DNA from: a virus
Lineage: Duplodnaviria > Caudoviricetes
Strand: one strand, 5' to 3'
Virus record (IMG/VR): IMGVR_UViG_3300021090_000024
Span: 1 to 55,879 of that record
DNA: 55,879 bases
Shown here: positions 2,597-34,381 of the stretch, one piece after another
Numbering within the stretch: the first letter of the stretch is position 1
Layout: the number at the start of each line of letters is the position of its first letter
Notes under the pieces: model-generated
What the model saw: the letters and a program-made list of their open reading frames with translations, nothing else
The model's database searches: none
What the model was told of the DNA's origin: nothing
Made by a program: the position numbers and the translations under genes

Positions 2597-2732
2597 GTTC
2601 TGCGGTAAGTGTGGTGAGATGTACGTCTATATGCGCGTGCATAAGATCATGAGCGGGCATCGTCCCACGCCGCCGCCCACGATGCCGGAGCGTTCGATGG
2701 GCATCAGACAAGATCGTGTAGGCGGGCTATGA
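2580..2732 (+). CDS. Small hypothetical protein
   Basis: CxxC; overlaps both neighbours. Confidence 0.45.
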   Translation: MPPTFKFCGKCGEMYVYMRVHKIMSGHRPTPPPTMPERSMGIRQDRVGGL

Positions 2733-2992
2733 GCATTCGTTGGCGGAAAGATGGGCGAATGCTATGTGCGGCTATGACAGAGCCGGAAGAGAACGACACA
2801 TACATAGACGACCGGCTGCACTATCAATTATCTGTAATCTCGCGCACCATTCTCGCGGACGTGAATCATGAGACAAACGGCCTATGGCATTGGGTTCATA
2901 ATGATTTCCTGCGTGTCGAAGCGGAGCACGCCGTCATTGCCAGATTGGAAAAAGCATGTACGCCATCAACATCACCGCTAGTCTCGATTTAG
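2729..2992 (+). CDS. Hypothetical protein
   Basis: ATGA coupling with the upstream ORF. Confidence 0.6.
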   Translation: MSIRWRKDGRMLCAAMTEPEENDTYIDDRLHYQLSVISRTILADVNHETNGLWHWVHNDFLRVEAEHAVIARLEKACTPSTSPLVSI

Positions 2993-3201
2993 AACGCTAC
3001 ACTGCGCTCGCGAAACTGCGCGCTTATGGCGGCTCTCACTATGAGGATGGCTGGCTCACCTATCGTGTTGAATTACATGATGTGGAAGTGGCTGATGAAT
3101 GGGTGGCGGAGCACGCCACGGCGGGCTTTTCGCTGTCGCGCCGCGATGAGAAACGGCTGAAGGAAATGGAGAAGGAGGACGACGATGGAAATCTCGCGTA
3201 A
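2956..3201 (+). CDS. Hypothetical protein
   Basis: ORF in the tightly packed + strand chain. Confidence 0.6.
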   Translation: MYAINITASLDLERYTALAKLRAYGGSHYEDGWLTYRVELHDVEVADEWVAEHATAGFSLSRRDEKRLKEMEKEDDDGNLA

Positions 3202-3406
3202 GGATTTGCTCAAAGTCGGCGATGCCATGCGCTATGTTAATTGGGCGGGGCCATGTATGCGTGGATATGTAACGCGCGTTGGGCGGACACGCTACAATGT
3301 AGATGATGGCCGCGCCTACATCTACTTCTTCGAGGCGCATACTGAGCCATGCGAGCGCTGCACCGATCATCCGCAGACGGATTATCCACGAGGATACGAT
3401 CTATAG
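3185..3406 (+). CDS. Hypothetical protein
   Basis: SD AGGAGG upstream. Confidence 0.65.
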   Translation: MEISRKDLLKVGDAMRYVNWAGPCMRGYVTRVGRTRYNVDDGRAYIYFFEAHTEPCERCTDHPQTDYPRGYDL

Positions 3407-3564
3407 TGCCGTAACATTTTCACGGCACAGGCGTTTTTCACAGTAGCGGTGAAAATATTAGGAGGAATGAAAATGATAACTGTTCGACTACTCGCGTATT
3501 ACGTTTTTATCTTTGGTGTCGTTGTAGTAATGGCGCAATGCCTAAGCGGTGGGGCGATCTACTG

Positions 3565-3915
3565 ATGAAATCCCTCGAAGCTATTAAGGCGGAGAACATC
3601 GCCAACGCTTGTAACGGTATCGAAGGCGGAAGACACGACCTTCGCATTCAAGGCCATCCGAATTTTTCTCGCATCTATAGAGAATTCGCCACAGCCGACA
3701 ATCTCGACGTGGAGCTTACCTGCATCAAATGCGGTATCTCACGTAAGTGGCTAGGCGATCCCGACCGCCCAATCCGCGATCTACTCATCAGCCTGTATTC
3801 CGAACATGCGCTAGTGCCCACACCAGATGGTTATTTGTCCATCGAGAACCCCGTTCTGCTGCTCGATAAACTGACAGAGATCACAGAAATTCTCGCGGAG
3901 GAAGCCGATGTATGA
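3565..3915 (+). CDS. Hypothetical protein with Zn-ribbon motif
   Basis: C...H...CxxC pattern; coupled to neighbours. Confidence 0.6.
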   Translation: MKSLEAIKAENIANACNGIEGGRHDLRIQGHPNFSRIYREFATADNLDVELTCIKCGISRKWLGDPDRPIRDLLISLYSEHALVPTPDGYLSIENPVLLLDKLTEITEILAEEADV

Positions 3916-5237: not shown

Positions 5238-5587
5238 GATTACTCATCACTGGCTCACGTGGATTTGATAACCGAAAGTTGATGCATCGAGTCCTCCTTG
5301 AGGCTTGGGATAATGGTTATCGCGTTCTTATCCATGGCGCTGCGAGAGGTGCCGACCGTCTAGCCGCAGAAGTGGGAGAACGAATTGGTTTTGAAATCGA
5401 GGCCTATCCGGTACGTCGACAACTCGATGGGCCGTGGCCCGCTGCCGGTGTGAAGCGGAACAGTCGGATGCTCGAAGAGAGTCAGCCGCATATATGCTTC
5501 GCCTTCCCTCTAGCCGATAGCAGAGGCACGTGGGATATGGTGAATAAGTGCAAGGCGGCGGATGTACCATATGTGATTTGCACGTAA
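5234..5587 (+). CDS. SLOG superfamily YspA/DUF2493-like protein
   Basis: ITGSRGF, IHGAARGAD, AGVKRNxxM, SRGTWDM motifs. Confidence 0.9.
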   Translation: MRLLITGSRGFDNRKLMHRVLLEAWDNGYRVLIHGAARGADRLAAEVGERIGFEIEAYPVRRQLDGPWPAAGVKRNSRMLEESQPHICFAFPLADSRGTWDMVNKCKAADVPYVICT

Positions 5588-5601
5588 ACTAAGGTTGGCG
5601 C

Positions 5602-5844
5602 ATGATGCTAGATATGATCACATTTGCAATCCTATGGGTCGGGATTCTCAATCTCCCCCGTATCGTGAGATTGATCCGACGGGGTTTCTCCTTCCTATTC
5701 AAGGACATGGCTTGGTGTGCCTTTGGCTTCCATCGCTGGAACGAATGGCGTCACGATGGCCGGTACATCCGCCAATACAAAGCCGACATTCGGCTCTGCA
5801 CCATCACAGGCTGTCGAGCACGTCAGGAGCGTTCCTATGTCTAA
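5602..5844 (+). CDS. Small membrane-anchored Zn-ribbon protein
   Basis: Hydrophobic N-terminus; CxxGFHRW...CxxxxC. Confidence 0.55.
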   Translation: MMLDMITFAILWVGILNLPRIVRLIRRGFSFLFKDMAWCAFGFHRWNEWRHDGRYIRQYKADIRLCTITGCRARQERSYV

Positions 5845-6322
5845 TGCACCGTATCCGCACTGCGATTCTTTGGTACTTCATGCCCCAGGAGAATGCGTGT
5901 TCTGTGACGACCGGCCTGATCTTCAAGCCTATCGACAAGAGCATGGTTTGAATTTCACCGGTCATGGGCCTGACATGGCCTCAGCACGGCGTCCGGTCGA
6001 GACCATCAACCAATGGTCTGGAAATCGGCCTGTTACCCAAACCGATATAGATGATTTCTCCACACAAACCCGTCGCACATTCAACTTGATGGTAGCCACT
6101 AAGACGGTACTCGGCGAAGTGAATGTAGTTTGTGATCGCTGTCGCAAAGAGGTTACGGGCTGGAATACTGTACAAGGTACGTCAAACTTTTATGCACTTC
6201 GGCCAGACGATTCACGGGAGTTCCCTTGGGCCTCGTGCTTTGGGCCGGATGAGGTAATCATTTGCGATGCCTGCATGTATGCTGACCCAGGCTACATCGC
6301 AGCATACGGGTCACGTGGCTGA
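5837..6322 (+). CDS. Cys-rich hypothetical protein
   Basis: SD AGGAG; three CxxC motifs. Confidence 0.7.
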   Translation: MSNAPYPHCDSLVLHAPGECVFCDDRPDLQAYRQEHGLNFTGHGPDMASARRPVETINQWSGNRPVTQTDIDDFSTQTRRTFNLMVATKTVLGEVNVVCDRCRKEVTGWNTVQGTSNFYALRPDDSREFPWASCFGPDEVIICDACMYADPGYIAAYGSRG

Positions 6323-6555
6323 TGGACGATCTAGTAGAGTACGCTTTAGAAAACGATGGACAGCGCCGACGCATTCGTGAATTGCTTGTGCTCCTTCGTA
6401 AGTCACATGATCTCATGGATGACTACAACGTGCAGCATGATCCGCAACAAAAGGTGCCGCGTTGCCTCTGGTGCCATACTCAAGGCGTTGACATTTTTGG
6501 TCAAATGCACACAACTGATTGCATACTCGTGCAGATCAGATTAGCAACACAATAA
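6322..6555 (+). CDS. Hypothetical protein (CxxC...HxxxC)
   Basis: TGATG coupling. Confidence 0.6.
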   Translation: MDDLVEYALENDGQRRRIRELLVLLRKSHDLMDDYNVQHDPQQKVPRCLWCHTQGVDIFGQMHTTDCILVQIRLATQ

Positions 6556-6567
6556 CGGAGGAAAGAA

Positions 6568-6732
6568 ATGCCTGAATTGACGATTTGGCGACTACGGGAT
6601 TTTGACGATGATCGCGGCCCATTCAGTGATTGTACTCAGGCTGAAGTTATGGCTGCTATCGCAAATGGCGATGCAGTGGCAGAGTATGTATCGATAGAAG
6701 AGCCAGAGGTGCCGGATGCCCTTCGGCCCTAA
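6568..6732 (+). CDS. Small acidic hypothetical protein (54 aa)
   Basis: SD GGAGG; not in the ORF track. Confidence 0.55.
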   Translation: MPELTIWRLRDFDDDRGPFSDCTQAEVMAAIANGDAVAEYVSIEEPEVPDALRP

Positions 6733-6895
6733 CTGCGAATACGCTACCTTCGATGAGTGTGTAAAGGCAAACAAGGATAAGAAAGACCCTGACGCCTATT
6801 GCGCTACCATCATGCGTGACACCGAAGAGCACTGCAAAAACAAGAGCTTCGTGACTGTTATGCGCGATCTCTTCACGCGGTTTAAGCGAGGATGA
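6716..6895 (+). CDS. Small Cys-containing protein (59 aa)
   Basis: SD GAGG; MPFGPNCEYATFDECV...AYC; not in the ORF track. Confidence 0.55.
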   Translation: MPFGPNCEYATFDECVKANKDKKDPDAYCATIMRDTEEHCKNKSFVTVMRDLFTRFKRG

Positions 6896-6896
6896 T

Positions 6897-7424
6897 GTGG
6901 CTGAAATCCCTGTAGAGGAATTGACATTAAGCACCGTCTTTAGGGTGAAGCGTGTGAGGCTTCACCCCAATGATTTGCATACAATTTTTCTTACCTGTTA
7001 TTCCGGCTCTCTAGTAGCCATGACGCTATATACTAATGGGTCGGAACCATGCCCCTTTTTGGAGGGCGACTTTTACGGCACAGAGATAAGTCAACATGGC
7101 GATTGGCATCTCGTGCGTTTGCCGCAAACCACAATCGATTATATTAGAATTGAAGAAGCTGCAATTGCAGCGCTCTCACCGGCTGAAAAGGCTAAGCGCA
7201 CTAAGGCATGGCATAACAGAGTTCGAACCATTTCTGAAGAAATACGTCGAGAAAAGCTTCGACATCATGCTACTGATTCTGAAGAACAGTGTGAATCTAA
7301 ATTGTTTCTTTCACAAAATGAGGCTCCAATTAACTGCCAGTATGTCTTAGGACATTCTGGATCGCATTGGAATGGACGCGGTATGGGCGACGGTTATACA
7401 TGGGATGATGCTGATGTGCTGTAA
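6897..7424 (+). CDS. Hypothetical protein with C-terminal C..C..HxGxH Zn-binding motif
   Basis: SD GAGGA before GTG; CQYVLGHSGSH. Confidence 0.65.
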   Translation: MAEIPVEELTLSTVFRVKRVRLHPNDLHTIFLTCYSGSLVAMTLYTNGSEPCPFLEGDFYGTEISQHGDWHLVRLPQTTIDYIRIEEAAIAALSPAEKAKRTKAWHNRVRTISEEIRREKLRHHATDSEEQCESKLFLSQNEAPINCQYVLGHSGSHWNGRGMGDGYTWDDADVL

Positions 7425-7950
7425 CACTAGAGTAGATGTCCGCCTTCCAAGGGACGAGATTGCGTCGATCCTGCTTATTGCGGGATTTCGTGCGACACAA
7501 CATCCGCCTCTATTCATCCGTGAATTCGAGCCAATGCAGACTGAACGTCGTTGGATGGACGGCACCCCTATAACCGAAAACCGGCTAGTGCGGGCAACGA
7601 TACAGCCCTATGGTGTAAGCTTCTCCCTATCCCCATCTATCGCCAGTCACACTGAGGAACAGCACGCTCTCAATGCCCTTGGTGCGGCCATCATGTTCAA
7701 AACCGTCATGACGCTAGCCGAGCGCGGCGGCGGTAGTGCACGACAACTTCTACTGATGGCCGATTGCTTACGCGAAAATAGTTCGGATAGTAGGCTCTTA
7801 GCGGACTATAGTATAGAGCCTCCGATACAACTCGATTTCGCAAACCTATGTCTCGGCTTTAGAACCGTTTTGCTACAAGGCATAGGCGATGCTACAAGGG
7901 GAGCATTCGATGGAGAGTACCATTCGGAACCAGAAGCGCCGCCAGCGTGA
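7414..7950 (+). CDS. Hypothetical protein
   Basis: Long ORF in the chain; start uncertain. Confidence 0.6.
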   Translation: MCCNTRVDVRLPRDEIASILLIAGFRATQHPPLFIREFEPMQTERRWMDGTPITENRLVRATIQPYGVSFSLSPSIASHTEEQHALNALGAAIMFKTVMTLAERGGGSARQLLLMADCLRENSSDSRLLADYSIEPPIQLDFANLCLGFRTVLLQGIGDATRGAFDGEYHSEPEAPPA

Positions 7951-8437
7951 GCGTGCTGCTGATCTCCTAAAACGAGTTTGCACCCATCTCGGATATGAGT
8001 GTTGGTGGTGCAAACGGCCTCTAGTCTTAGCTAGAGACATCCCTGATGTCAATGTACTCAAGCGCACTGCGGATCATCTCACCTGGCGGTCTAATCGTCA
8101 CGGGCCGATCACAAAGTTGATCGCTACTGTGGATCATGTGTTACCATTAGCAGATGGTGGCAACAATTACTATACGAACCTGGTGCCGTCCTGCGGGCCA
8201 TGTAATCGGGATCGTACCAACAGGCCAGCCATATTCGCGAGACGGTTAGAGCAATTTCGCAGAGAGGCCTACAATGCCGAGCTACAACATACCATTCAAA
8301 GGCAGGGGAGTGGACGAAGCTGGCTACCAAGCGGTAGTGGCCAAAGCACTGCGCGAAGAAACCAGCGGGCCAGTCCTCATACGACCGCGAGGCCGTATTC
8401 GCGGAAAGTCGTGGGACAGCTACAAGAGGCTTTCTAA
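7910..8437 (+). CDS. HNH endonuclease
   Basis: CWWC...TVDHVLPLADGGNNYYTNLVPSCGPCN. Confidence 0.85.
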   Translation: MESTIRNQKRRQRERAADLLKRVCTHLGYECWWCKRPLVLARDIPDVNVLKRTADHLTWRSNRHGPITKLIATVDHVLPLADGGNNYYTNLVPSCGPCNRDRTNRPAIFARRLEQFRREAYNAELQHTIQRQGSGRSWLPSGSGQSTARRNQRASPHTTARPYSRKVVGQLQEAF

Positions 8438-8448
8438 AAACTAGCAAA

Positions 8449-8546
8449 ATCCATAGTTGATACATCAATGTTAATCGGCGTATATGAAAATAGATACGAA
8501 AATGGCCTAATATACGGCGATTAACATTTATGTATCAACTATGGAT
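8449..8546. repeat. 37-bp inverted repeat (35/37 paired) with a 24-nt spacer
   Basis: Arms 8449-8485 and 8510-8546; AT-rich. Confidence 0.9.
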
Positions 8547-8588
8547 ACAAAACCTTCCTGAAAAAATCGGGGAAAAAGGAGTGAAAAC

Positions 8589-8798
8589 ATGGACAATTGC
8601 ATCTGTCAGCCTTTCATCTCATATTGGGATGGGAGCGCCTATGCCGGTGAATTCAACAGCATACCAACCAGAGATTGCCCTGAACATGGTGATGCTGCTG
8701 AGGAGCGCTTTCGTGCGCTTGTGACTGCCATTGATGAAGTACATCGCGAAGCAGGGATCGATTCGAAAGACGGCTTTGAACTAGGCGGTGGTCACTAA
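8589..8798 (+). CDS. Small hypothetical protein
   Basis: SD AAGGAG; CxC...CPEHG. Confidence 0.6.
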   Translation: MDNCICQPFISYWDGSAYAGEFNSIPTRDCPEHGDAAEERFRALVTAIDEVHREAGIDSKDGFELGGGH

Positions 8799-9054
8799 TG
8801 ACTACTGTGATTGGCATTCCGCTCCCTGGCGTGCGGGTGACTATGCCCACTGTACGCGACTACCCTGGTATCCATATCAGTAGGCCACAGCCCAAGCCAA
8901 ATAGCGCTCCTAAGAAGGTCTAGCATGAACCCATTGAAGAAGCTGAAGCATCGGGCGCAGCGCGTTGGCGGAGCATACGGCCATCAGCATGTCAATAAAT
9001 GGTTAAAGCGGGCGGCGAATCGTTTCATCCGCCGCTTCCTAAAGGAGGAACGTC

Positions 9055-9591
9055 GTGAATATGAAGATTGACGATTGGCCAATGGTTGGCTCGGCGGTCT
9101 TTTCGCCGGATAGACGCTATCGCTATACCCTAGAACGCATGTTTACCGCGACGCCGAATAGGTGGTATGAGTATCATGCGATCTTCATTATGCTTAACCC
9201 ATCGACGGCGGATGCAGACGTGGCTGATCCGACCGTCCGGCGCTGTATAACCTATGCGTATGATTGGGAATGCAATGGCGTCACGGTCTTGAACCTCTTT
9301 GCGCTGCGCTCCACCAATCCGCGTCATCTTAAAATTGTCGATGATCCTGTAGGGCCAGGCAACGATGATGCGATCCGAGCTTCATTGGAAGAACTCAAGG
9401 CTGATCGCCCTGAGCCAATTGTAGTGTGTGCCTGGGGTGAGCACGGGGCCTATCGGTATCGAGGCTCCGCCGTCTTGAATATAGTGCGAGAAGCAAACCT
9501 TACGCCTCATTATCTGAAGCTGAATGCTTCGGGACAACCGGCCCATCCGCTCTATCTCCCCAAAAATTTGACGCCCATTCCATATGTGTGA
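9055..9591 (+). CDS. DUF1643 family protein
   Basis: YRYTL, FIMLNPSTAD, DPTVRRC, NLFALRSTNP, CAWG, PAHPLY motifs. Confidence 0.9.
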   Translation: MNMKIDDWPMVGSAVFSPDRRYRYTLERMFTATPNRWYEYHAIFIMLNPSTADADVADPTVRRCITYAYDWECNGVTVLNLFALRSTNPRHLKIVDDPVGPGNDDAIRASLEELKADRPEPIVVCAWGEHGAYRYRGSAVLNIVREANLTPHYLKLNASGQPAHPLYLPKNLTPIPYV

Positions 9592-9597
9592 TATGTT
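9568..9597 (+). promoter_or_regulatory. Sigma70-type promoter for the tRNA array
   Basis: TTGACG-N18-TATGTT with an extended TG, 26 nt before the first tRNA. Confidence 0.55.
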
Positions 9598-9623
9598 TTA
9601 ACCTCATACACGTTTTAATCAGT

Positions 9624-9699
9624 AGCGCGGTAGAGAAGTGGTTATCTCGCTGGCCCCATAAGCCGGAAATCGTGGGTTCAAATCCCACCTGCGCCACCA
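9624..9699 (+). tRNA. tRNA-Met(CAT), initiator-like
   Basis: Cloverleaf; loop CCCATAA; A1:C72 mismatch; CCA end. Confidence 0.85.
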
Positions 9700-9706
9700 A
9701 TGTGCA

Positions 9707-9791
9707 CACCGTCTCTCGCGGCGGTTAAGGGCGAAGTAGCCCAACTTCGGATAGGCGAGCCACCGCTGATCACGGTGATTAGTTTCCGAGG
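9707..9791 (+). ncRNA. Putative pseudoknotted structured RNA (element A)
   Basis: Four stems plus a loop-to-downstream pairing, paired by eye. Confidence 0.5.
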
Positions 9792-9828
9792 CATTATGGC
9801 TGGCCCCTATGTTAGGGGCAGTTGAACG

Positions 9829-9888
9829 GGGCGGTGACAAGAGGTTTGGAACCTCTTCCGGTTTCCGGTTGCAGACGGATAGCCGCCC
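9829..9888 (+). ncRNA. Putative three-way-junction RNA (element B)
   Basis: GGGCGGT/GCCGCCC closing stem with two hairpins. Confidence 0.45.
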
Positions 9889-9968
9889 AATTTTCTAGTA
9901 TGTGGGGCGCGCTGTCGTGTCGTGAGTCATTGGAGGCTCCCTTGATTTCGACTCAAACACGACAATTT

Positions 9969-10042
9969 TCCCCGTTAGTCTAGTGGTAGGACGTGTGGCT
10001 CTGAACCACAAGGGCGGAGTTCGAATCTTTGACGGGGAGCCA
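9969..10042 (+). tRNA. tRNA-Gln(CTG)
   Basis: TGTGG-CTCTGAA-CCACA arm; TTCGAAT; CCA. Confidence 0.95.
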
Positions 10043-10069
10043 GACAAATAAGAGAAAAGGAGGTTCGAC

Positions 10070-10198
10070 GTGGACGGCGATAATCGCAGCGGATGGACGC
10101 CACGCATGGTTTTTTGGAATACCTTGGGCACCGTTGTTGGTGCTGTCTGCGGAACCTCCGCCTTGGTAATTTCTGTTATAGCCCTGCTTCAATCTTAA
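10070..10198 (+). CDS. Small single-TM peptide (42 aa)
   Basis: SD AAGGAGG, GTG start; hydrophobic C-terminal helix. Confidence 0.6.
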   Translation: MDGDNRSGWTPRMVFWNTLGTVVGAVCGTSALVISVIALLQS

Positions 10199-10232
10199 AG
10201 CAGACGCACTTTTACAACTGAATAGTGAGCGC

Positions 10233-10307
10233 CCTGGCGGGGTGTGAAGGATGCATCCCTCCCTGTCAAGGAGGAGGTAGCGGGATCGATACCCGTCGCT
10301 AGGGCCA
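10233..10307 (+). tRNA. tRNA-Asp(GTC)
   Basis: CCTCC-CTGTCAA-GGAGG; T-loop ATCGATA; CCA. Confidence 0.9.
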
Positions 10308-10403
10308 GACGCATATCACGGGAAGGCGATAGCTTTAGGGGCATAAGCCTGGAAAAGCGGGTATCGTCAACGTTGGTAACGGGTTAGGCCAACAGGTTGG
10401 TTC

Positions 10404-10479
10404 GGGGGTGTAGCTCAATTGGGAGAGCAAGTGCCTTGCACGCACTAGGTTGCAGGTTCGAGACCTGTCACTTCCACCA
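10404..10479 (+). tRNA. tRNA-Ala(TGC)
   Basis: AGTGC-CTTGCAC-GCACT; G3:U70; CCA. Confidence 0.95.
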
Positions 10480-10488
10480 AGAAATAAC

Positions 10489-10591
10489 GCATGGTTCCGC
10501 ATTTCGTAAGGATGCGGCGAGGAGTCGGGAAGGTGGGAGATGATGCGCCACCGCAGCAGGGTAGCAAGTAAGTCCCTAGCGCCAACCATGC
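10489..10591 (+). ncRNA. Putative multibranch structured RNA (element E)
   Basis: GCATGGTT/AACCATGC closing stem enclosing three hairpins. Confidence 0.5.
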
Positions 10592-10595
10592 ATGA

Positions 10596-10670
10596 GCGTT
10601 CGTAGCTCAATGGCAGAGCAGGCGGCTCTTAACCGTCAGGTTCAGAGTTCAAATCTCTGCGGACGCACCA
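10596..10670 (+). tRNA. tRNA-Lys(CTT)
   Basis: GGCGG-CTCTTAA-CCGTC; CCA. Confidence 0.95.
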
Positions 10671-10695
10671 AGAAACTTGCGGCTAGAAGGGAACC

Positions 10696-10865
10696 TCCGG
10701 CTAGGTTTGTGGACTTTAAGGGTGCCGGACGAGCGGCTTGTGGAGTGGTTTACACAAGCGAAAAGAGAAGTGCAGGGACAGGTCGGGGATCGGACAGCGG
10801 ACGGTCTGATCGGGTCGGAGGCGCGGGCGCGGTACTAGCGCGAAGGGGCTATCCGACCGGCTGGA
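10696..10865 (+). ncRNA. Putative ~170-nt structured RNA (element F)
   Basis: Terminal stem plus internal 7- and 8-bp hairpins. Confidence 0.5.
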
Positions 10866-10866
10866 T

Positions 10867-10938
10867 GCGAGTGAGTCATGGCGACAAGCTGTGTCTCCAA
10901 AACCAGTGATGTGGGTTCGATTCCTACCACTCGTGCCA
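10867..10938 (+). tRNA. tRNA-Trp(CCA), atypical
   Basis: Loop CTCCAAA; short D-arm; bulged anticodon stem; normal T-arm; CCA. Confidence 0.8.
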
Positions 10939-10949
10939 AAAATAGCTAT

Positions 10950-11024
10950 TCTGAGGTAGCTCAGCGGTAGAGCGGCTGTCTGTTAAACAGTTGGTCGAAG
11001 GTTCGAATCCTTCCCTCAGAGCCA
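10950..11024 (+). tRNA. tRNA-Asn(GTT)
   Basis: GCTGT-CTGTTAA-ACAGT; CCA. Confidence 0.95.
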
Positions 11025-11034
11025 AAAAATTTAC

Positions 11035-11110
11035 GGCTCTCTAGCCCAACGGCAGAGGCAATGGCTTCAAAACCCATCCAGTCTGAGTTCAAATCTCAGG
11101 GGAGCTACCA
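11035..11110 (+). tRNA. tRNA-Leu(CAA), short variable arm
   Basis: ATGGC-TTCAAAA-CCCAT with C31:C39 mismatch; CCA. Confidence 0.8.
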
Positions 11111-11189
11111 AGAAATTTCGGGGCACTTAAAGGGGTCTGCCGCCATACGTGGCACTTATTTTTTTAGAGCAGACCCGCCCCTTTTATAC

Positions 11190-11261
11190 GGCCCTTTCTG
11201 CTAGCGGTTAGGCATCCCGTCTCTCGAATGGGCAACGCCGGTTCGAATCCGGCAAGGGCCA
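11190..11261 (+). tRNA. tRNA-Glu(CTC), no encoded CCA
   Basis: CCCGT-CTCTCGA-ATGGG; GGCCCTT/AAGGGCC acceptor. Confidence 0.9.
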
Positions 11262-11262
11262 C

Positions 11263-11337
11263 GGCCCCTTCTGTTAACGGTTAGGCAGCGTGTCCTTCAA
11301 ACACGTAACGCGGGTTCGACTCCCACAGGGGCCACCA
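11263..11337 (+). tRNA. tRNA-Glu(TTC)
   Basis: CGTGT-CCTTCAA-ACACG (C33); CCA. Confidence 0.9.
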
Positions 11338-11356
11338 GAAAAGAGGAGGAAGCAAA

Positions 11357-11521
11357 ATGAATGACGAATTGTATGATCTCATCGAAACTCTACGAGCACT
11401 ACGTGCAAGGGTGGACGACTTAAATGAACCGGAGATGGACGAGCATCGCGCGGCAGCAATTATGGAATCACTGACCAGTGCCATATCCAGTTTATTGGTA
11501 GCACGTCATCTCGTGAATTAA
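11357..11521 (+). CDS. Small helical protein (54 aa) inside the tRNA array
   Basis: SD GAGGAGG; stop abuts tRNA-Phe. Confidence 0.7.
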   Translation: MNDELYDLIETLRALRARVDDLNEPEMDEHRAAAIMESLTSAISSLLVARHLVN

Positions 11522-11597
11522 GCCGTGGTAGCTCATACGGTAGAGCGCTTGCCTGAAAAGCAAGAGGTAGCTGGATCGTTACCAGCCTGCGGCACCA
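11522..11597 (+). tRNA. tRNA-Phe(GAA)
   Basis: CTTGC-CTGAAAA-GCAAG; T-loop ATCGTTA; CCA. Confidence 0.92.
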
Positions 11598-11609
11598 AAT
11601 AATTATTAT

Positions 11610-11687
11610 GCCGGTGAAGCTCACGTTGGCTTGAGCGCCCGCCTTGTAAGCGGAAGAACGGGGGTTCGATTCCCTCTACCGGCTCCA
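11610..11687 (+). tRNA. tRNA-Thr(TGT)
   Basis: Loop CTTGTAA; CCA. Confidence 0.92.
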
Positions 11688-11688
11688 C

Positions 11689-11765
11689 GCGGGTGTGATG
11701 TTTAATGGCTAGCATGTCTGCCTTCCAAGCAGAACGAGGGGGTTCGAGTCCTCTCATCCGCACCA
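11689..11765 (+). tRNA. tRNA-Gly(TCC)
   Basis: TCTGC-CTTCCAA-GCAGA; CCA. Confidence 0.95.
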
Positions 11766-11804
11766 AGAATGGGCCAATTCACGAAAAGCATGAATTCGTG
11801 AGTA

Positions 11805-11974
11805 GGAACTCTGCGAGGGGCGCAGGAGCGCTTGAAAGTGTGTGGCTGGATCGGAGTGTCGTAAGCACCAGCCTAGCGCAACGGTGAGCGGATACGCTCA
11901 TTAAACGCAAACACGTAGAGGGTTGGGTCGACCCAATGCCGTTGACACTGGCGGGTCGGTGGTAGCAGAGTCCC
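11805..11974 (+). ncRNA. Putative ~170-nt multibranch RNA (element H)
   Basis: GGAACTCTGC/GCAGAGTCCC closing stem plus at least four internal hairpins. Confidence 0.55.
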
Positions 11975-11977
11975 AAT

Positions 11978-12065
11978 GCCAGTGCGCCGGAGATGGGGAG
12001 CCGGAGCGGTCTGTAAAACCGCCGCCCTTCGGGGCTAGTAGGTTCAAATCCTATCGCTGGCACCA
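11978..12065 (+). tRNA. tRNA-Tyr(GTA)
   Basis: GCGGT-CTGTAAA-ACCGC; long variable arm; CCA. Confidence 0.95.
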
Positions 12066-12074
12066 AAAAGTTTC

Positions 12075-12149
12075 GCCCGCTTAGCTCAGCGGAAGAGCAT
12101 GTTCCTTACAAGAACGGGGCCGGAGGTTCGAATCCTTCAGCGGGCACCA
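12075..12149 (+). tRNA. tRNA-Val(TAC)
   Basis: TGTTC-CTTACAA-GAACG; CCA. Confidence 0.95.
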
Positions 12150-12236
12150 AGTCAAAGCGGGTCTTCATCAGGTAGATGCAATGCGCACCCTGAACCAGCA
12201 AACATGATAGTGAAAGTGGAGATAAGAGACTATCTT

Positions 12237-12314
12237 GCCCTTGATGCTCGATTGGACAGAGAAACGGAGTTCTAACCCGTATAAAAGTGGGTTCGAATCC
12301 CACCGAGGGCACCA
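12237..12314 (+). tRNA. tRNA-Arg(TCT)
   Basis: ACGGA-GTTCTAA-CCCGT; CCA. Confidence 0.85.
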
Positions 12315-12315
12315 C

Positions 12316-12400
12316 GCCGGTATGACGGAATAGGCAGACGTAGCGGTCTTAAAAACCGTGGCCTTCGGGCATGTAGGTTCGACCCCTACTATCGGCACCA
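12316..12400 (+). tRNA. tRNA-Leu(TAA)
   Basis: GCGGT-CTTAAAA-ACCGT; long variable arm; CCA. Confidence 0.95.
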
Positions 12401-12413
12401 GAAAATTGAATAC

Positions 12414-12491
12414 GGCTTTCTATCCCAATTGGCAGAGGAGACAGTCTTAGAAACTGCTAATGTCTCGGTTCGAGTCCGAGGAAAGCCACCA
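12414..12491 (+). tRNA. tRNA-Leu(TAG), short variable arm
   Basis: ACAGT-CTTAGAA-ACTGC; CCA. Confidence 0.88.
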
Positions 12492-12497
12492 AGAATT

Positions 12498-12572
12498 AGC
12501 CCTTTAGCTCAGTGGTAGAGCATCGGCCTTATAAGCCGGAGGCCGTTGGTTCGAATCCAACAAGGGCAACCA
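12498..12572 (+). tRNA. tRNA-Ile(TAT)
   Basis: TCGGC-CTTATAA-GCCGG; A1:A72 mismatch; CCA. Confidence 0.88.
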
Positions 12573-12581
12573 GACAACTTT

Positions 12582-12668
12582 GGAGGAGTCGGCATGGGAA
12601 ACGCCAAACTGTCCTGAAAACAGCGGGCCGTAAAAAGCCAGGGGGTTCGAATCCCTCCTCCTCCGCCA
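12582..12668 (+). tRNA. tRNA-Ser(TGA)
   Basis: Loop CCTGAAA (C33); long variable arm; G73; CCA. Confidence 0.9.
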
Positions 12669-12743
12669 GCCCGCTTAGCTCAATGGCAGAGCATCCGCCT
12701 TTTAAGCGGTCGGTTGTAGGTTCGACTCCTACAGCGGGCACCA
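12669..12743 (+). tRNA. tRNA-Lys(TTT)
   Basis: Loop CTTTTAA; CCA. Confidence 0.95.
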
Positions 12744-12750
12744 GAAAATG

Positions 12751-12848
12751 GGAATCCTCAACTCCTGCGTGCAGGGTAGGGGCTACAGTGACTGGTCAGC
12801 ATTGTAGCAATAAGGGATGAGGCAATTCCGGTACGTGGAGAAGCCGGA
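12751..12848 (+). ncRNA. Putative pseudoknotted RNA (element J)
   Basis: GGAAT-CCTCA/TGAGG-ATTCC stem, 9-bp hairpin and long-range pairing. Confidence 0.5.
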
Positions 12849-12854
12849 TAACAC

Positions 12855-12930
12855 GCCCTTTTAGCTCAGCGAACAGAGCAGCGGTCTTCGAAACCGCGTG
12901 TCGGGGGTTTGAATCCCTCAAAGGGCACCA
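12855..12930 (+). tRNA. tRNA-Arg(TCG)
   Basis: GCGGT-CTTCGAA-ACCGC; T-loop TTTGAAT; CCA. Confidence 0.92.
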
Positions 12931-12935
12931 GACAA

Positions 12936-13010
12936 GCCTGCTTAGCTCAGGGGTAGAGCACTGATCTGATACGTCAGTTGTCGGTGGTTCAAATCCATCA
13001 GCAGGCACCA
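12936..13010 (+). tRNA. tRNA-Ile(GAT)
   Basis: CTGAT-CTGATAC-GTCAG; CCA. Confidence 0.95.
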
Positions 13011-13068
13011 ATAAATGATCGTGTTGTCATCTTGACTGTTTTAGTGATTCTGACAACATAAGCATATA

Positions 13069-13143
13069 CGGGGTGTGGGGCAGCGGTAGCCTACTTGATT
13101 TGGAATCAAGATGTCGCTGGTTCGAATCCAGCCACCCCGACCA
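13069..13143 (+). tRNA. tRNA-Pro(TGG)
   Basis: CTTGA-TTTGGAA-TCAAG; CCA. Confidence 0.95.
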
Positions 13144-13195
13144 ATACTTCAAAATCCCTCATACTTGAGGGGCAATGCAGTAACATGTTCACCAA

Positions 13196-13272
13196 CGAGA
13201 GAGTGGTCTAAATGGTTAAGACGATAGATTGTGGCTCTGTAAATGCGAGTTCGAATCTCGCCCTCTCGACCA
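13196..13272 (+). tRNA. tRNA-His(GTG), atypical acceptor stem
   Basis: ATAGA-TTGTGGC-TCTGT; acceptor pairs only with one bulged A; A discriminator. Confidence 0.8.
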
Positions 13273-13679
13273 AAAAATGCACGAAATGTGGCCTCATCAA
13301 ATCGATTGAGGATTTCTTCTTGCGCAGTGATCGGTCTATGACACATCGCCCTGAATGCAAAAAATGCCACGGTGAGCAAACAAAACGTAATCATCGAATG
13401 CGTCCTGGCCGACATTTGAGGCCCCAATACGGTATAACTGAAGAGCAATATCAGACTATGCTCAAAGCACAAAATGGTGTGTGCGCTATTTGTCAACAAA
13501 ATCCAAAAGATCGGCGCCTAGCAGTAGATCACGATCACAGAACTATGCGCGTGAGAGGACTGCTTTGCAATACGTGCAATCGCGCTATTGGTCAGATGGG
13601 AGATGATCCAGTACGGCTTCGACGCGCGGCAGAATATTTAGGAGAGGTGGCAGAGAGGTTGAATGCACCGGATTGCTAA
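13212..13679 (+). CDS. Endonuclease VII-like (beta-beta-alpha-Me) endonuclease
   Basis: YGITEEQY..QNGVCAIC..LAVDHDH..VRGLLCNTCNRAIG..DDP..LRRAAEYL; N-terminal CxxC..CxxC. Confidence 0.9.
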   Translation: MVKTIDCGSVNASSNLALSTKKCTKCGLIKSIEDFFLRSDRSMTHRPECKKCHGEQTKRNHRMRPGRHLRPQYGITEEQYQTMLKAQNGVCAICQQNPKDRRLAVDHDHRTMRVRGLLCNTCNRAIGQMGDDPVRLRRAAEYLGEVAERLNAPDC

Positions 13680-13730
13680 TCCGGCAGGCCCGCAAGGGCC
13701 TCGTGGGTTCGAATCCCACCCTCTCCGCCA
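13641..13730 (+). tRNA. tRNA-Ser(GCT)
   Basis: CCGGA-TTGCTAA-TCCGG; long variable arm; CCA. Confidence 0.95.
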
Positions 13731-13899
13731 AGAATATGTCGGGAAATCAGCACATTGCAGGAATGTCTGAAAATGAGCACAAAAAGCGAACGCAGGGAGG
13801 CCATCCGCCGTAAGCGGCGCGGCCACCGCGTGCATCAAAGCTTCTTGCGCGTAACACGTGCACTGGCTGAGCGTTTTAAGCTACAGAGGAGAAAACAGA

Positions 13900-14127
13900 A
13901 TGTTCAAATACCTGATTAGGCATCTCATGCCATACGCCGTCCGCACTGTCATCATGGCCGGATTGCTTATCGGCGTCCTACACGAGGCGGGGATCGCCAC
14001 TTTGCTCACTTTGGGGTTGATTTTCATGTCTATTGAGGCTCATCGACTGAATCACGGTATTCAAGCGCTTCGCGGCATGGTTTTTGCACCAATTAGGCAA
14101 AATAATCCCCGTTTTCGCATAAAATAG
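13900..14127 (+). CDS. Small membrane protein
   Basis: SD GAGGAG; two hydrophobic segments. Confidence 0.6.
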   Translation: MFKYLIRHLMPYAVRTVIMAGLLIGVLHEAGIATLLTLGLIFMSIEAHRLNHGIQALRGMVFAPIRQNNPRFRIK

Positions 14128-14433
14128 CCTCAAAAAGGCGCAAAAAGGTAGAAAAACGCTCCAAAGTGACCATTTAGGGTCGCCAAGGGGCGTTTTTCTT
14201 ATGGTAAAGTACCAAAAATCGTTTTTAAGGGTGCGCTGTACTACCTCTTATGTGGCTGTCCGAGGCAGGAAACTACAGCTATACCGCCCCACACAAGGCC
14301 TCTGGAAGGCCTTCCAAAGCCCTTCACGCGGTTTAACCTACCAATGTAGGCCTCCGCACCGACCATGCACATTCTGGATGCAGCAGCGGTCGGACAAAAT
14401 TCACCTGTTTAGCCGCCATTCCCTGGCAAATAG

Positions 14434-34269: not shown

Positions 34270-34297
34270 AAATCAACTAGCGAGGCTTGGTAGGCAA

Positions 34298-34324
34298 TGC
34301 CCTTCCCTTTTCGGAAGGGCATTT
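34298..34324 (+). terminator. Probable terminator hairpin after the tail tube gene
   Basis: TGCCCTTCC-CTTTTC-GGAAGGGCA-TTT. Confidence 0.6.
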
Positions 34325-34381
34325 GCGCGTCTTGTGGTATATTGTTCTTAGTACAAATGTTCTTTGGAGGAGATACAACCC

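Follow-up and report, generated by a model that had tools for sequence, protein, structure and literature searches.

The DNA analyzed here is the whole of IMG/VR record IMGVR_UViG_3300021090_000024, a 55,879-base (55.9 kb) contig of an uncultured Caudoviricetes phage from freshwater sediment that encodes a large terminase, a portal, a major head protein, and a tape-measure-like protein; we refer to this entire stretch as the window. It carries a tRNA array (9624-13730) in which long gaps between the tRNA genes hold compactly folding sequence, and these gaps are the subject of this report. ARAGORN predicts 24 tRNAs in the array, all on the plus strand. Near-identical DNA is present in 13 listed sediment or freshwater-sediment runs from 13 studies, and when the array was compared with 50,697 phage records by megablast and blastn, no cultured phage was found to resemble the contig beyond single tRNAs.

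A permissive Rfam scan of 9400-14000 (E up to 10) added two sub-threshold plus-strand genes to the array, bringing it to 26. Both were missed by ARAGORN and both have a canonical T loop. The first, at 10867-10939, is a tRNA-Trp-like gene (anticodon CCA) whose D arm is aberrant; it matches RF00005 over 10867-10935 at 25.5 bits (gathering score 29) and carries the T loop GGTTCGATTCC. The second, at 12582-12667, is a tRNA-Ser-like gene (anticodon UGA) with a long variable arm and an odd D arm, matched by the tRNA-Sec model over 12582-12664 at 28 bits against a gathering score of 47. Together, the 26 tRNA and tRNA-like genes cover 19 amino acids and include a tRNA-Ile with anticodon TAT; no Cys tRNA was found among them.

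The 25 gaps between these genes split cleanly into 12 of 0-13 nucleotides (nt) and 13 of 52-368 nt, as the first-pass annotation of this DNA had described when it set nearly abutting tRNAs beside long spacers. Three of the long gaps contain real open reading frames (ORFs), and eight have no credible ORF; these eight contain the ten elements that the annotation had listed as structured non-tRNA RNAs. Among the start codons in the long gaps, only those of a 42-amino acid ORF (10070-10198) and a 54-amino acid ORF (11357-11521) have a Shine-Dalgarno sequence, open a frame of more than 20 amino acids, and do not run antisense through a tRNA. Both lie in gaps absent from the annotation's list, so its statement that the listed spacers lack credible ORFs is borne out. 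The idea that small proteins are encoded in the eight gaps was rejected on the ORF table and on a check of ribosome-binding sites and frames. We label the eight gaps S1, S3, S4, S5, S7, S10, S12, and S16; all coordinates given for them refer to the plus strand.

The boundaries of the gaps follow a recurrent layout. CCA is encoded in 25 of the 26 array genes (counted by eye on the gap table), and where the trailer is at least 5 nt long, 18 of 22 have at least four purines in the first five bases, typically AGAAA, GAAAA, or GACAA (also an eye count). The predicted folds then stop 1-8 nt short of the next tRNA. A module thus runs from an encoded CCA through a purine- or A-rich single-stranded linker into a compact hairpin or multi-helix domain, and from there through one to eight unpaired bases to the next tRNA. 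The sole array gene without an encoded CCA is the first of a pair of tRNA-Glu genes (11190-11337; anticodons CTC and TTC, 75% alike), which are separated by a zero-nt spacer.

The embedded ORFs and all 26 tRNA and tRNA-like genes are on the plus strand, and the region is bounded by candidate signals on that strand. A sigma-70-like promoter match (9568-9597; TTGACG, 18 nt, TATGTT, with TG before the second hexamer), which is a consensus match only, lies 27 nt upstream of the first tRNA. On the other side, beyond two further small ORFs that sit between the last tRNA and the terminator, a canonical intrinsic terminator (14150-14199) consists of a 13-bp perfect outer stem followed by TTTTTCTT. Its segment (14110-14205) has a z of -4.91, with none of 200 shuffles folding equally well, where z here and throughout compares folding with 200 dinucleotide shuffles. 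From this anatomy (one strand, embedded ORFs, a promoter-like site, and a terminator), we infer that the array is one mixed polycistronic tRNA-mRNA operon that extends between the promoter-like site at 9568 and the terminator at ~14200. The polycistronic arrangement that the first-pass annotation had proposed therefore agrees with a single direction, one promoter-like site upstream, and one canonical terminator downstream.

Because whole gaps are bounded by tRNA ends, their z is free of boundary-picking bias, whereas the boundaries of the ten listed elements had been chosen by eye, which biases their z downward. The eight whole gaps have a mean z of -2.21. For comparison, 60 random 80-nt windows of the genome have a mean z of -0.36 (standard deviation 1.35), with 12% below -2 and 3% below -3, and 19 other ORF-free gaps have a mean of -1.28 (median -0.95), most of them near zero and four strongly folded, the latter being likely terminators or other hairpins. 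The eight gaps are distinct from the random windows (Welch p 0.002) and, modestly, from the 19 others (Mann-Whitney p 0.04), and seven of the eight fall below z -1.6 against five of the 19 elsewhere (Fisher p 0.006, at a threshold set after seeing the data). The folding excess is real at the group level. For single elements, folding is convincing only in S10, S7, S5, and the hairpin at 9913-9964, and it is absent at 12159-12236.

The largest of the eight gaps is S1 (9700-9968), which spans 269 nt between tRNA-Met and tRNA-Gln and has a whole-gap z of -2.83. It comprises a set of hairpins (9707-9791; z -2.50), a closed three-way fold (9829-9888; z -2.28), and a closed hairpin (9913-9964; z -3.74) whose end lies 4 nt before tRNA-Gln. 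When taken up to the tRNA (9913-9968), the last of these has a z of -3.92, and none of 200 shuffles folds equally well. S10 (11766-11977), the 212-nt gap between tRNA-Gly and tRNA-Tyr, has a z of -3.68 on the plus strand and -4.77 on the minus strand. It forms a closed multi-branch fold of about six hairpins (11805-11974), with a z of -2.44 at the bounds used in the first-pass annotation, and contains the perfect 14-nt palindrome TTGGGTCGACCCAA.

In S5 (10671-10866), a 196-nt gap between tRNA-Lys and the Trp-like gene with a G+C content of 0.61, three helical domains are predicted, and the fold is stronger on the plus strand (z -2.54 versus -1.01 on the minus strand; the element 10696-10865 has a z of -3.14). 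The 79-nt gap S7 (11111-11189), between tRNA-Leu and tRNA-Glu, has a whole-gap z of -3.06, and its element (11121-11180) has a z of -2.64; on refolding, S7 gave a z of -3.44 with none of 200 shuffles equally good. Its long interrupted helix is followed by TTTTATAC, and within the apical loop are a small hairpin and, after it, seven consecutive Ts (a terminator-like match at 11138-11154). Given these features, S7 may double as a partial terminator.

The remaining gaps are less distinctive. S3 (10308-10403), the 96-nt gap between tRNA-Asp and tRNA-Ala, forms two hairpins (whole-gap z -2.24; element 10327-10396, z -1.98). In S4 (10480-10595), a 116-nt gap between tRNA-Ala and tRNA-Lys (whole-gap z -1.72; element z -1.91), an 8-bp closing helix (10489-10591) surrounds three hairpins in a cloverleaf-like topology that is not a tRNA, as no tRNA model matches it at E up to 10. 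S16 (12744-12854), 111 nt between tRNA-Lys and tRNA-Arg, has two weakly supported hairpins (z -1.69; element 12751-12848, z -1.46), and S12 (12150-12236), 87 nt between tRNA-Val and tRNA-Arg, gives no folding signal at all (z +0.10; element 12159-12236, z +0.23). Outside the range covered by the annotation, two short A+T-rich gaps flanking tRNA-Pro on the plus strand (13011-13068 and 13144-13195) contain one hairpin each, with z of -2.39 and -2.89.

The first-pass annotation had spoken of closed stems or multi-stem folds and of about ten different structured RNAs. Closure is indeed predicted for 9829-9888, 9913-9964, 10489-10591, 11121-11180, and 11805-11974, and the other elements are rows of separate hairpins. 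Nine of the ten elements lie below the shuffle mean, seven reach -1.9, two reach -3, and one is unsupported. Measured against dinucleotide shuffles, the proposal thus survives as a group excess among mutually unlike spacers from which two or three elements stand out, and it fails at 12159-12236, which folds as expected by chance.

We then consider what the spacers resemble. Rfam 15 (4227 models, including GOLLD, ROOL, HDV-like, hammerhead, twister, 6S, tmRNA, and group I/II introns) gave 22 matches in the whole window at the gathering score, all of them tRNA and all confirming ARAGORN predictions; none of the spacers belongs to a non-tRNA family known to Rfam. In the permissive scan of 9400-14000, the only matches inside gaps are the two tRNA-like genes; all others overlap tRNAs far below the gathering score and are tRNA-related, plastid, or other weak chance matches. 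Decayed tRNAs were rejected as a source of the spacers: their best local alignments to the 26 tRNAs are no better than those of shuffles (p 0.21-1.0), and the tRNA model finds no match in any of the eight at E up to 10. The T-loop motif likewise occurs only in the tRNAs and the two tRNA-like genes, apart from the palindromic GGTCGACCC in S10, which also matches on the minus strand. A single repeated family was rejected as well, since mutual alignments of the spacers look like those of shuffles (p 0.07-0.98), and direct repeats in the region are parts of tRNAs only. Antisense targets within the phage itself were sought and discarded, the longest complementarity to the rest of the genome being 13 nt, which is the chance expectation.

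The anatomy of the array and the group-level folding excess lead us to favor, tentatively and at somewhat less than an even chance, a reading in which the eight ORF-less long spacers are self-contained folded modules of a polycistronic tRNA-mRNA precursor and act mainly in cis. During tRNA maturation, RNase P cuts at the 5' end, and an endonucleolytic cut downstream of CCA is followed by trimming. Given these established activities at both tRNA ends, the spacers of a co-transcribed array would be excised from the precursor: RNase P would cut at the 5' end of the downstream tRNA, an RNase E-type endonuclease would cut in the A-rich linker, with the CCA end then trimmed, and the folded domain would be freed as a discrete piece with a helix at its 3' end. 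Before its release, the fold might serve in cis by keeping neighboring tRNAs from mispairing and by presenting the putative cutting sites in single-stranded form. After release, the helix at the 3' end of the piece could slow exonucleases, and some pieces might survive as stable RNAs comparable to RNAC and RNAD of phage T4 (see below), the best candidates being 9913-9964, S5, S7, and S10.

Several results weigh against this reading. A z of -3 is reached only by S10 and S7 among the whole gaps and by 9913-9964 and 10696-10865 among their parts, a level that 3% of random windows also attain; S12 has no signal, and those of S4 and S16 are weak. When the spacers are folded together with their flanking tRNAs, S4 (34 of 34), S5 (54 of 60), S3 (27 of 33), and S12 (20 of 20) retain most or all of their pairs, but S1 keeps only 55 of 86, S10 38 of 68, S7 9 of 18, and S16 11 of 31; this is a soft test, because the same runs misfold some tRNAs. 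Promoter matches in the region are no more frequent than by chance (four observed versus 4.2 expected in shuffles). No motif common to the spacers emerged from local alignment, a result that sits oddly with a shared cis-acting signal for processing. In S1, S4, and S10, folding is equally good or better on the minus strand. No spacer homologue was found in the 50,697 phage records or in IMG/VR 20-mer scans. The close loci identified by terminase among metagenome and viral contigs (L003, 80%; L016, 73%; L005, 52%) carry no tRNAs, including by Rfam, and L005 has a 344-amino acid ORF where the array would be expected.

The reach of these searches bears on how their outcome is read. The whole array, compared with the phage records by blastn (E up to 1e-6) and megablast, returned tRNA matches only, and S3, S4, S7, S12, and S16 were searched only inside this whole-array query. 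At E up to 1, blastn found nothing for S10 or S5 and a single 35-nt chance match, in a faecal phage, for S1. The IMG/VR 20-mer scans of the S10 core, the Glu-Glu junction, and the Trp-like D arm gave no hits, and that of the tRNA-Gly D arm led to two unrelated large phages that are alike at the tRNA level only. Relatives were also approached through proteins. The closest terminase protein relatives (P0002-P0005) are 80, 75, 74, and 66% identical, their longest contigs measuring 15.5 and 23.5 kb, but within IMG/VR terminase relatives reach only 23-29% identity and among genome contigs only 30%, and neither the DUF1643 protein encoded upstream of the array nor a 361-amino acid protein encoded downstream of it yielded any relative in IMG/VR. 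The array lies 6.3 kb upstream of the terminase gene, and the contigs of two close relatives end 3.6-4.4 kb upstream of theirs. Since no homologous array could be reached, we do not count this outcome as evidence against conservation or covariation. Separately, an unrelated 121-kb IMG/VR phage (L064) has a loose tRNA array (5427-9098) with gaps of 500-1300 nt, which includes an ARAGORN-called tRNA-Pyl (anticodon CTA), a possible amber suppressor.

Variation within the phage population was compared in four of the 13 runs, using the 32 longest of 814 pieces. These 32 pieces come from the same phage with zero or one difference, and none of the differences listed among them falls inside a spacer; those listed are in tRNAs (mostly the tRNAs of other organisms) or in genes flanking the array. 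Copies this similar, with no spacer differences, therefore offer nothing usable for covariation. None of the 13 listed runs that contain the stretch is an RNA run.

The strand comparison bears on whether the folds exist as RNA. Plus-strand-specific folding was examined as evidence of RNA-level selection and set aside, the result being mixed across the gaps. As the minus strand folds about equally, folding alone does not place the signal at the RNA level, and the palindromes could have a DNA-level or neutral origin. At the DNA level, they might serve the array's endonuclease VII-family or HNH enzymes as recognition or cruciform sites, or be points of recombination at which tRNA genes are shuffled. 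An endonuclease VII-family gene does sit inside the array, S10 contains its perfect 14-nt palindrome, and in S1, S4, S7, and S10 the z of the minus strand is no higher than that of the plus strand. We nevertheless regard a role as DNA as very improbable: in S5, S16, and the hairpin at 13144-13195 the plus strand has the clearly better fold, most stems branch and are imperfect, which sets them apart from palindromes bound by proteins, and no site is repeated.

A neutral origin deserves more weight, although we still consider it unlikely. The long gaps would in that case be filler left by gene gain and loss (decayed small ORFs, homing-endonuclease traffic, and pieces that arrived with captured tRNAs), with hairpins that are incidental. 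The array is dotted with small ORFs and holds the endonuclease VII-family gene, and an HNH gene lies nearby at 7889-8437. No homologue of the 54-amino acid ORF or of the spacers was found in the collections searched, and the neighborhood is mosaic on the contigs of relatives, so that, on this account, the region would be young or fast evolving. The equal folding signal on both strands, the lack of a motif common to the spacers, and the existence of a few other strongly folded gaps in the genome also speak for filler. What speaks against it is that seven of the eight gaps fall below z -1.6 compared with five of 19 elsewhere, that the spacers bear no trace of decayed tRNAs, and that their domains consistently end just before the next tRNA.

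The folded modules can be compared with several known systems. GOLLD and ROOL are large structured non-coding RNAs often found next to phage tRNA genes; the spacers are far shorter and have no Rfam match to either. When the usual processing enzymes cut pieces out of polycistronic tRNA precursors, these pieces can last and function in trans, and the 3' external spacer of the E. coli glyW-cysT-leuZ operon reportedly acts as a small RNA sponge. Spacers of that type are short, mostly single-stranded pairing regions of a host operon, whereas those of the phage are long compact folds with no known target.

Another possible counterpart is the theta ribozymes, minimal HDV-like ribozymes located beside Caudoviricetes tRNAs, for which a role in tRNA 3' end maturation has been proposed (Kienbeck et al. 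2024, PMC10879173). Like the spacers, they are structured non-tRNA RNA sequences adjoining Caudoviricetes tRNA genes. As described in that source, their fold is a nested double pseudoknot with the catalytic C in J4/2, their cleavage site (G1) lies at most 5 nt from the tRNA 3' end, CCA is encoded in only 4.5% of the associated tRNAs, and more than 80% are from gut phages (PMC10879173). The array differs in both position and CCA content, as 25 of its 26 tRNAs encode CCA and 18 of 22 trailers place a purine-rich unpaired linker before any helix. The Rfam HDV-like models, which are distinct from the published theta descriptor, gave no match in the spacers at E up to 10.

The nearest parallel is phage T4, whose tRNA region yields a pair of small RNAs named RNAC and RNAD (species 1 and 2), described in PMC3014915 as having an unknown biological role. 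In the account given in PMC9697503, both are detected by Northern blot and RNA sequencing and are classed as late RNAs. The spacers of the present array are likewise non-tRNA, on the same strand, and within a phage tRNA region. T4 has two such RNAs that were shown to accumulate, whereas the phage studied here has up to eight candidates, known here from sequence. No homology to RNAC or RNAD was found by blastn of S1, S5, and S10 at E up to 1 or, for the other spacers, by the whole-array search, on the assumption that T4 is present in the collection. Because RNAC and RNAD are of the same kind, we do not call the spacers categorically new. The suggestion in the first-pass annotation that they are small RNAs forming an undescribed system is neither supported nor refuted by these results.

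The T4 precedent also lends itself to a bolder view, in which the array carries a cassette of roughly eight to ten distinct trans-acting small RNAs, released by tRNA processing and each with its own target in host or phage. This view draws on the same anatomy and folding excess as the cis-acting modules. In addition, every spacer is unique, as expected for RNAs with separate jobs, about 1.2 kb of a 56-kb genome is devoted to the gaps, and S7 after an RNase P cut would consist of a helix with a U-rich tail, the usual 3' module of bacterial small RNAs. Against it stand the modest folding of each element, with one failing altogether, complementarity to the phage genome that does not exceed the 13 nt expected by chance, and the absence of any Rfam family (GOLLD, ROOL, and ribozymes included). 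We therefore consider such a cassette rather unlikely. A stricter formulation seems to us more doubtful still: that the operon is a processing scaffold for at least four, and at most eight, structured small RNAs that are uncatalogued and unrelated to one another, each of them freed by RNase P and 3' trimming and directed at a different host or phage target, as a multi-RNA version of T4 RNAC and RNAD.

Overall, the observation behind the first-pass annotation was largely right, and its functional interpretation is plausible. The locus is another phage tRNA array with structured spacers, and its lineage has no sequenced relative at the array. The module layout (CCA, A-rich linker, compact fold, and short leader) amounts to a concrete processing model that is testable in vitro. 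Should even some of the spacers prove to be stable RNAs with a function, phage tRNA arrays would represent a general platform for expressing small RNAs, and this array would supply new, diverse test cases for the sixty-year-old question of what role non-tRNA RNAs play in phage tRNA clusters.

The three ORF-bearing gaps of the array also encode their products on the plus strand. The 42-amino acid ORF (10070-10198), in the gap between tRNA-Gln and tRNA-Asp, has AGGAGG as its ribosome-binding site and is hydrophobic in its C-terminal half. That of 54 amino acids (11357-11521), between tRNA-Glu and tRNA-Phe, has a GAGGAGG ribosome-binding site, and a search of a 5.8-billion-protein collection recovered only the ORF itself; neither of the two has a Pfam match. 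The third gap, between tRNA-His and tRNA-Ser, contains the endonuclease VII-family ORF (13212-13679; PF02945, E 1.5e-27), whose only in-frame start codon (13212) lies inside tRNA-His (13196-13272) and whose N-terminal CxxC motif starts right after that tRNA. The full protein would therefore require an unprocessed precursor. A homologue on L016 (57% over 44 amino acids by tblastx) is encoded on the opposite strand with no nearby tRNA.

Immediately upstream of the array lies the gene for the DUF1643 protein (9055-9591), which has more than 2,300 metagenome relatives (E up to 1e-15), the best non-self match being 57% identical; the closest of these relatives (P0024-P0026, 57-53%) are on short contigs. 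A nearly perfect, very long hairpin rich in A+T (8460-8595) lies about 1 kb before the array and immediately precedes a gene that has a ribosome-binding site; its z is -6.15, with none of 200 shuffles equally good. Two other ORF-free gaps of the window, 1-111 and 34270-34347, have z of -4.67 and -4.00. Among the terminase relatives, the gene on L003 (80% identical) is interrupted by ~1 kb (2664-3671) absent from the phage studied here, and the related terminase protein P0002 is 821 amino acids long instead of 486; the insertion has the look of an intein or of an intron carrying a homing gene.

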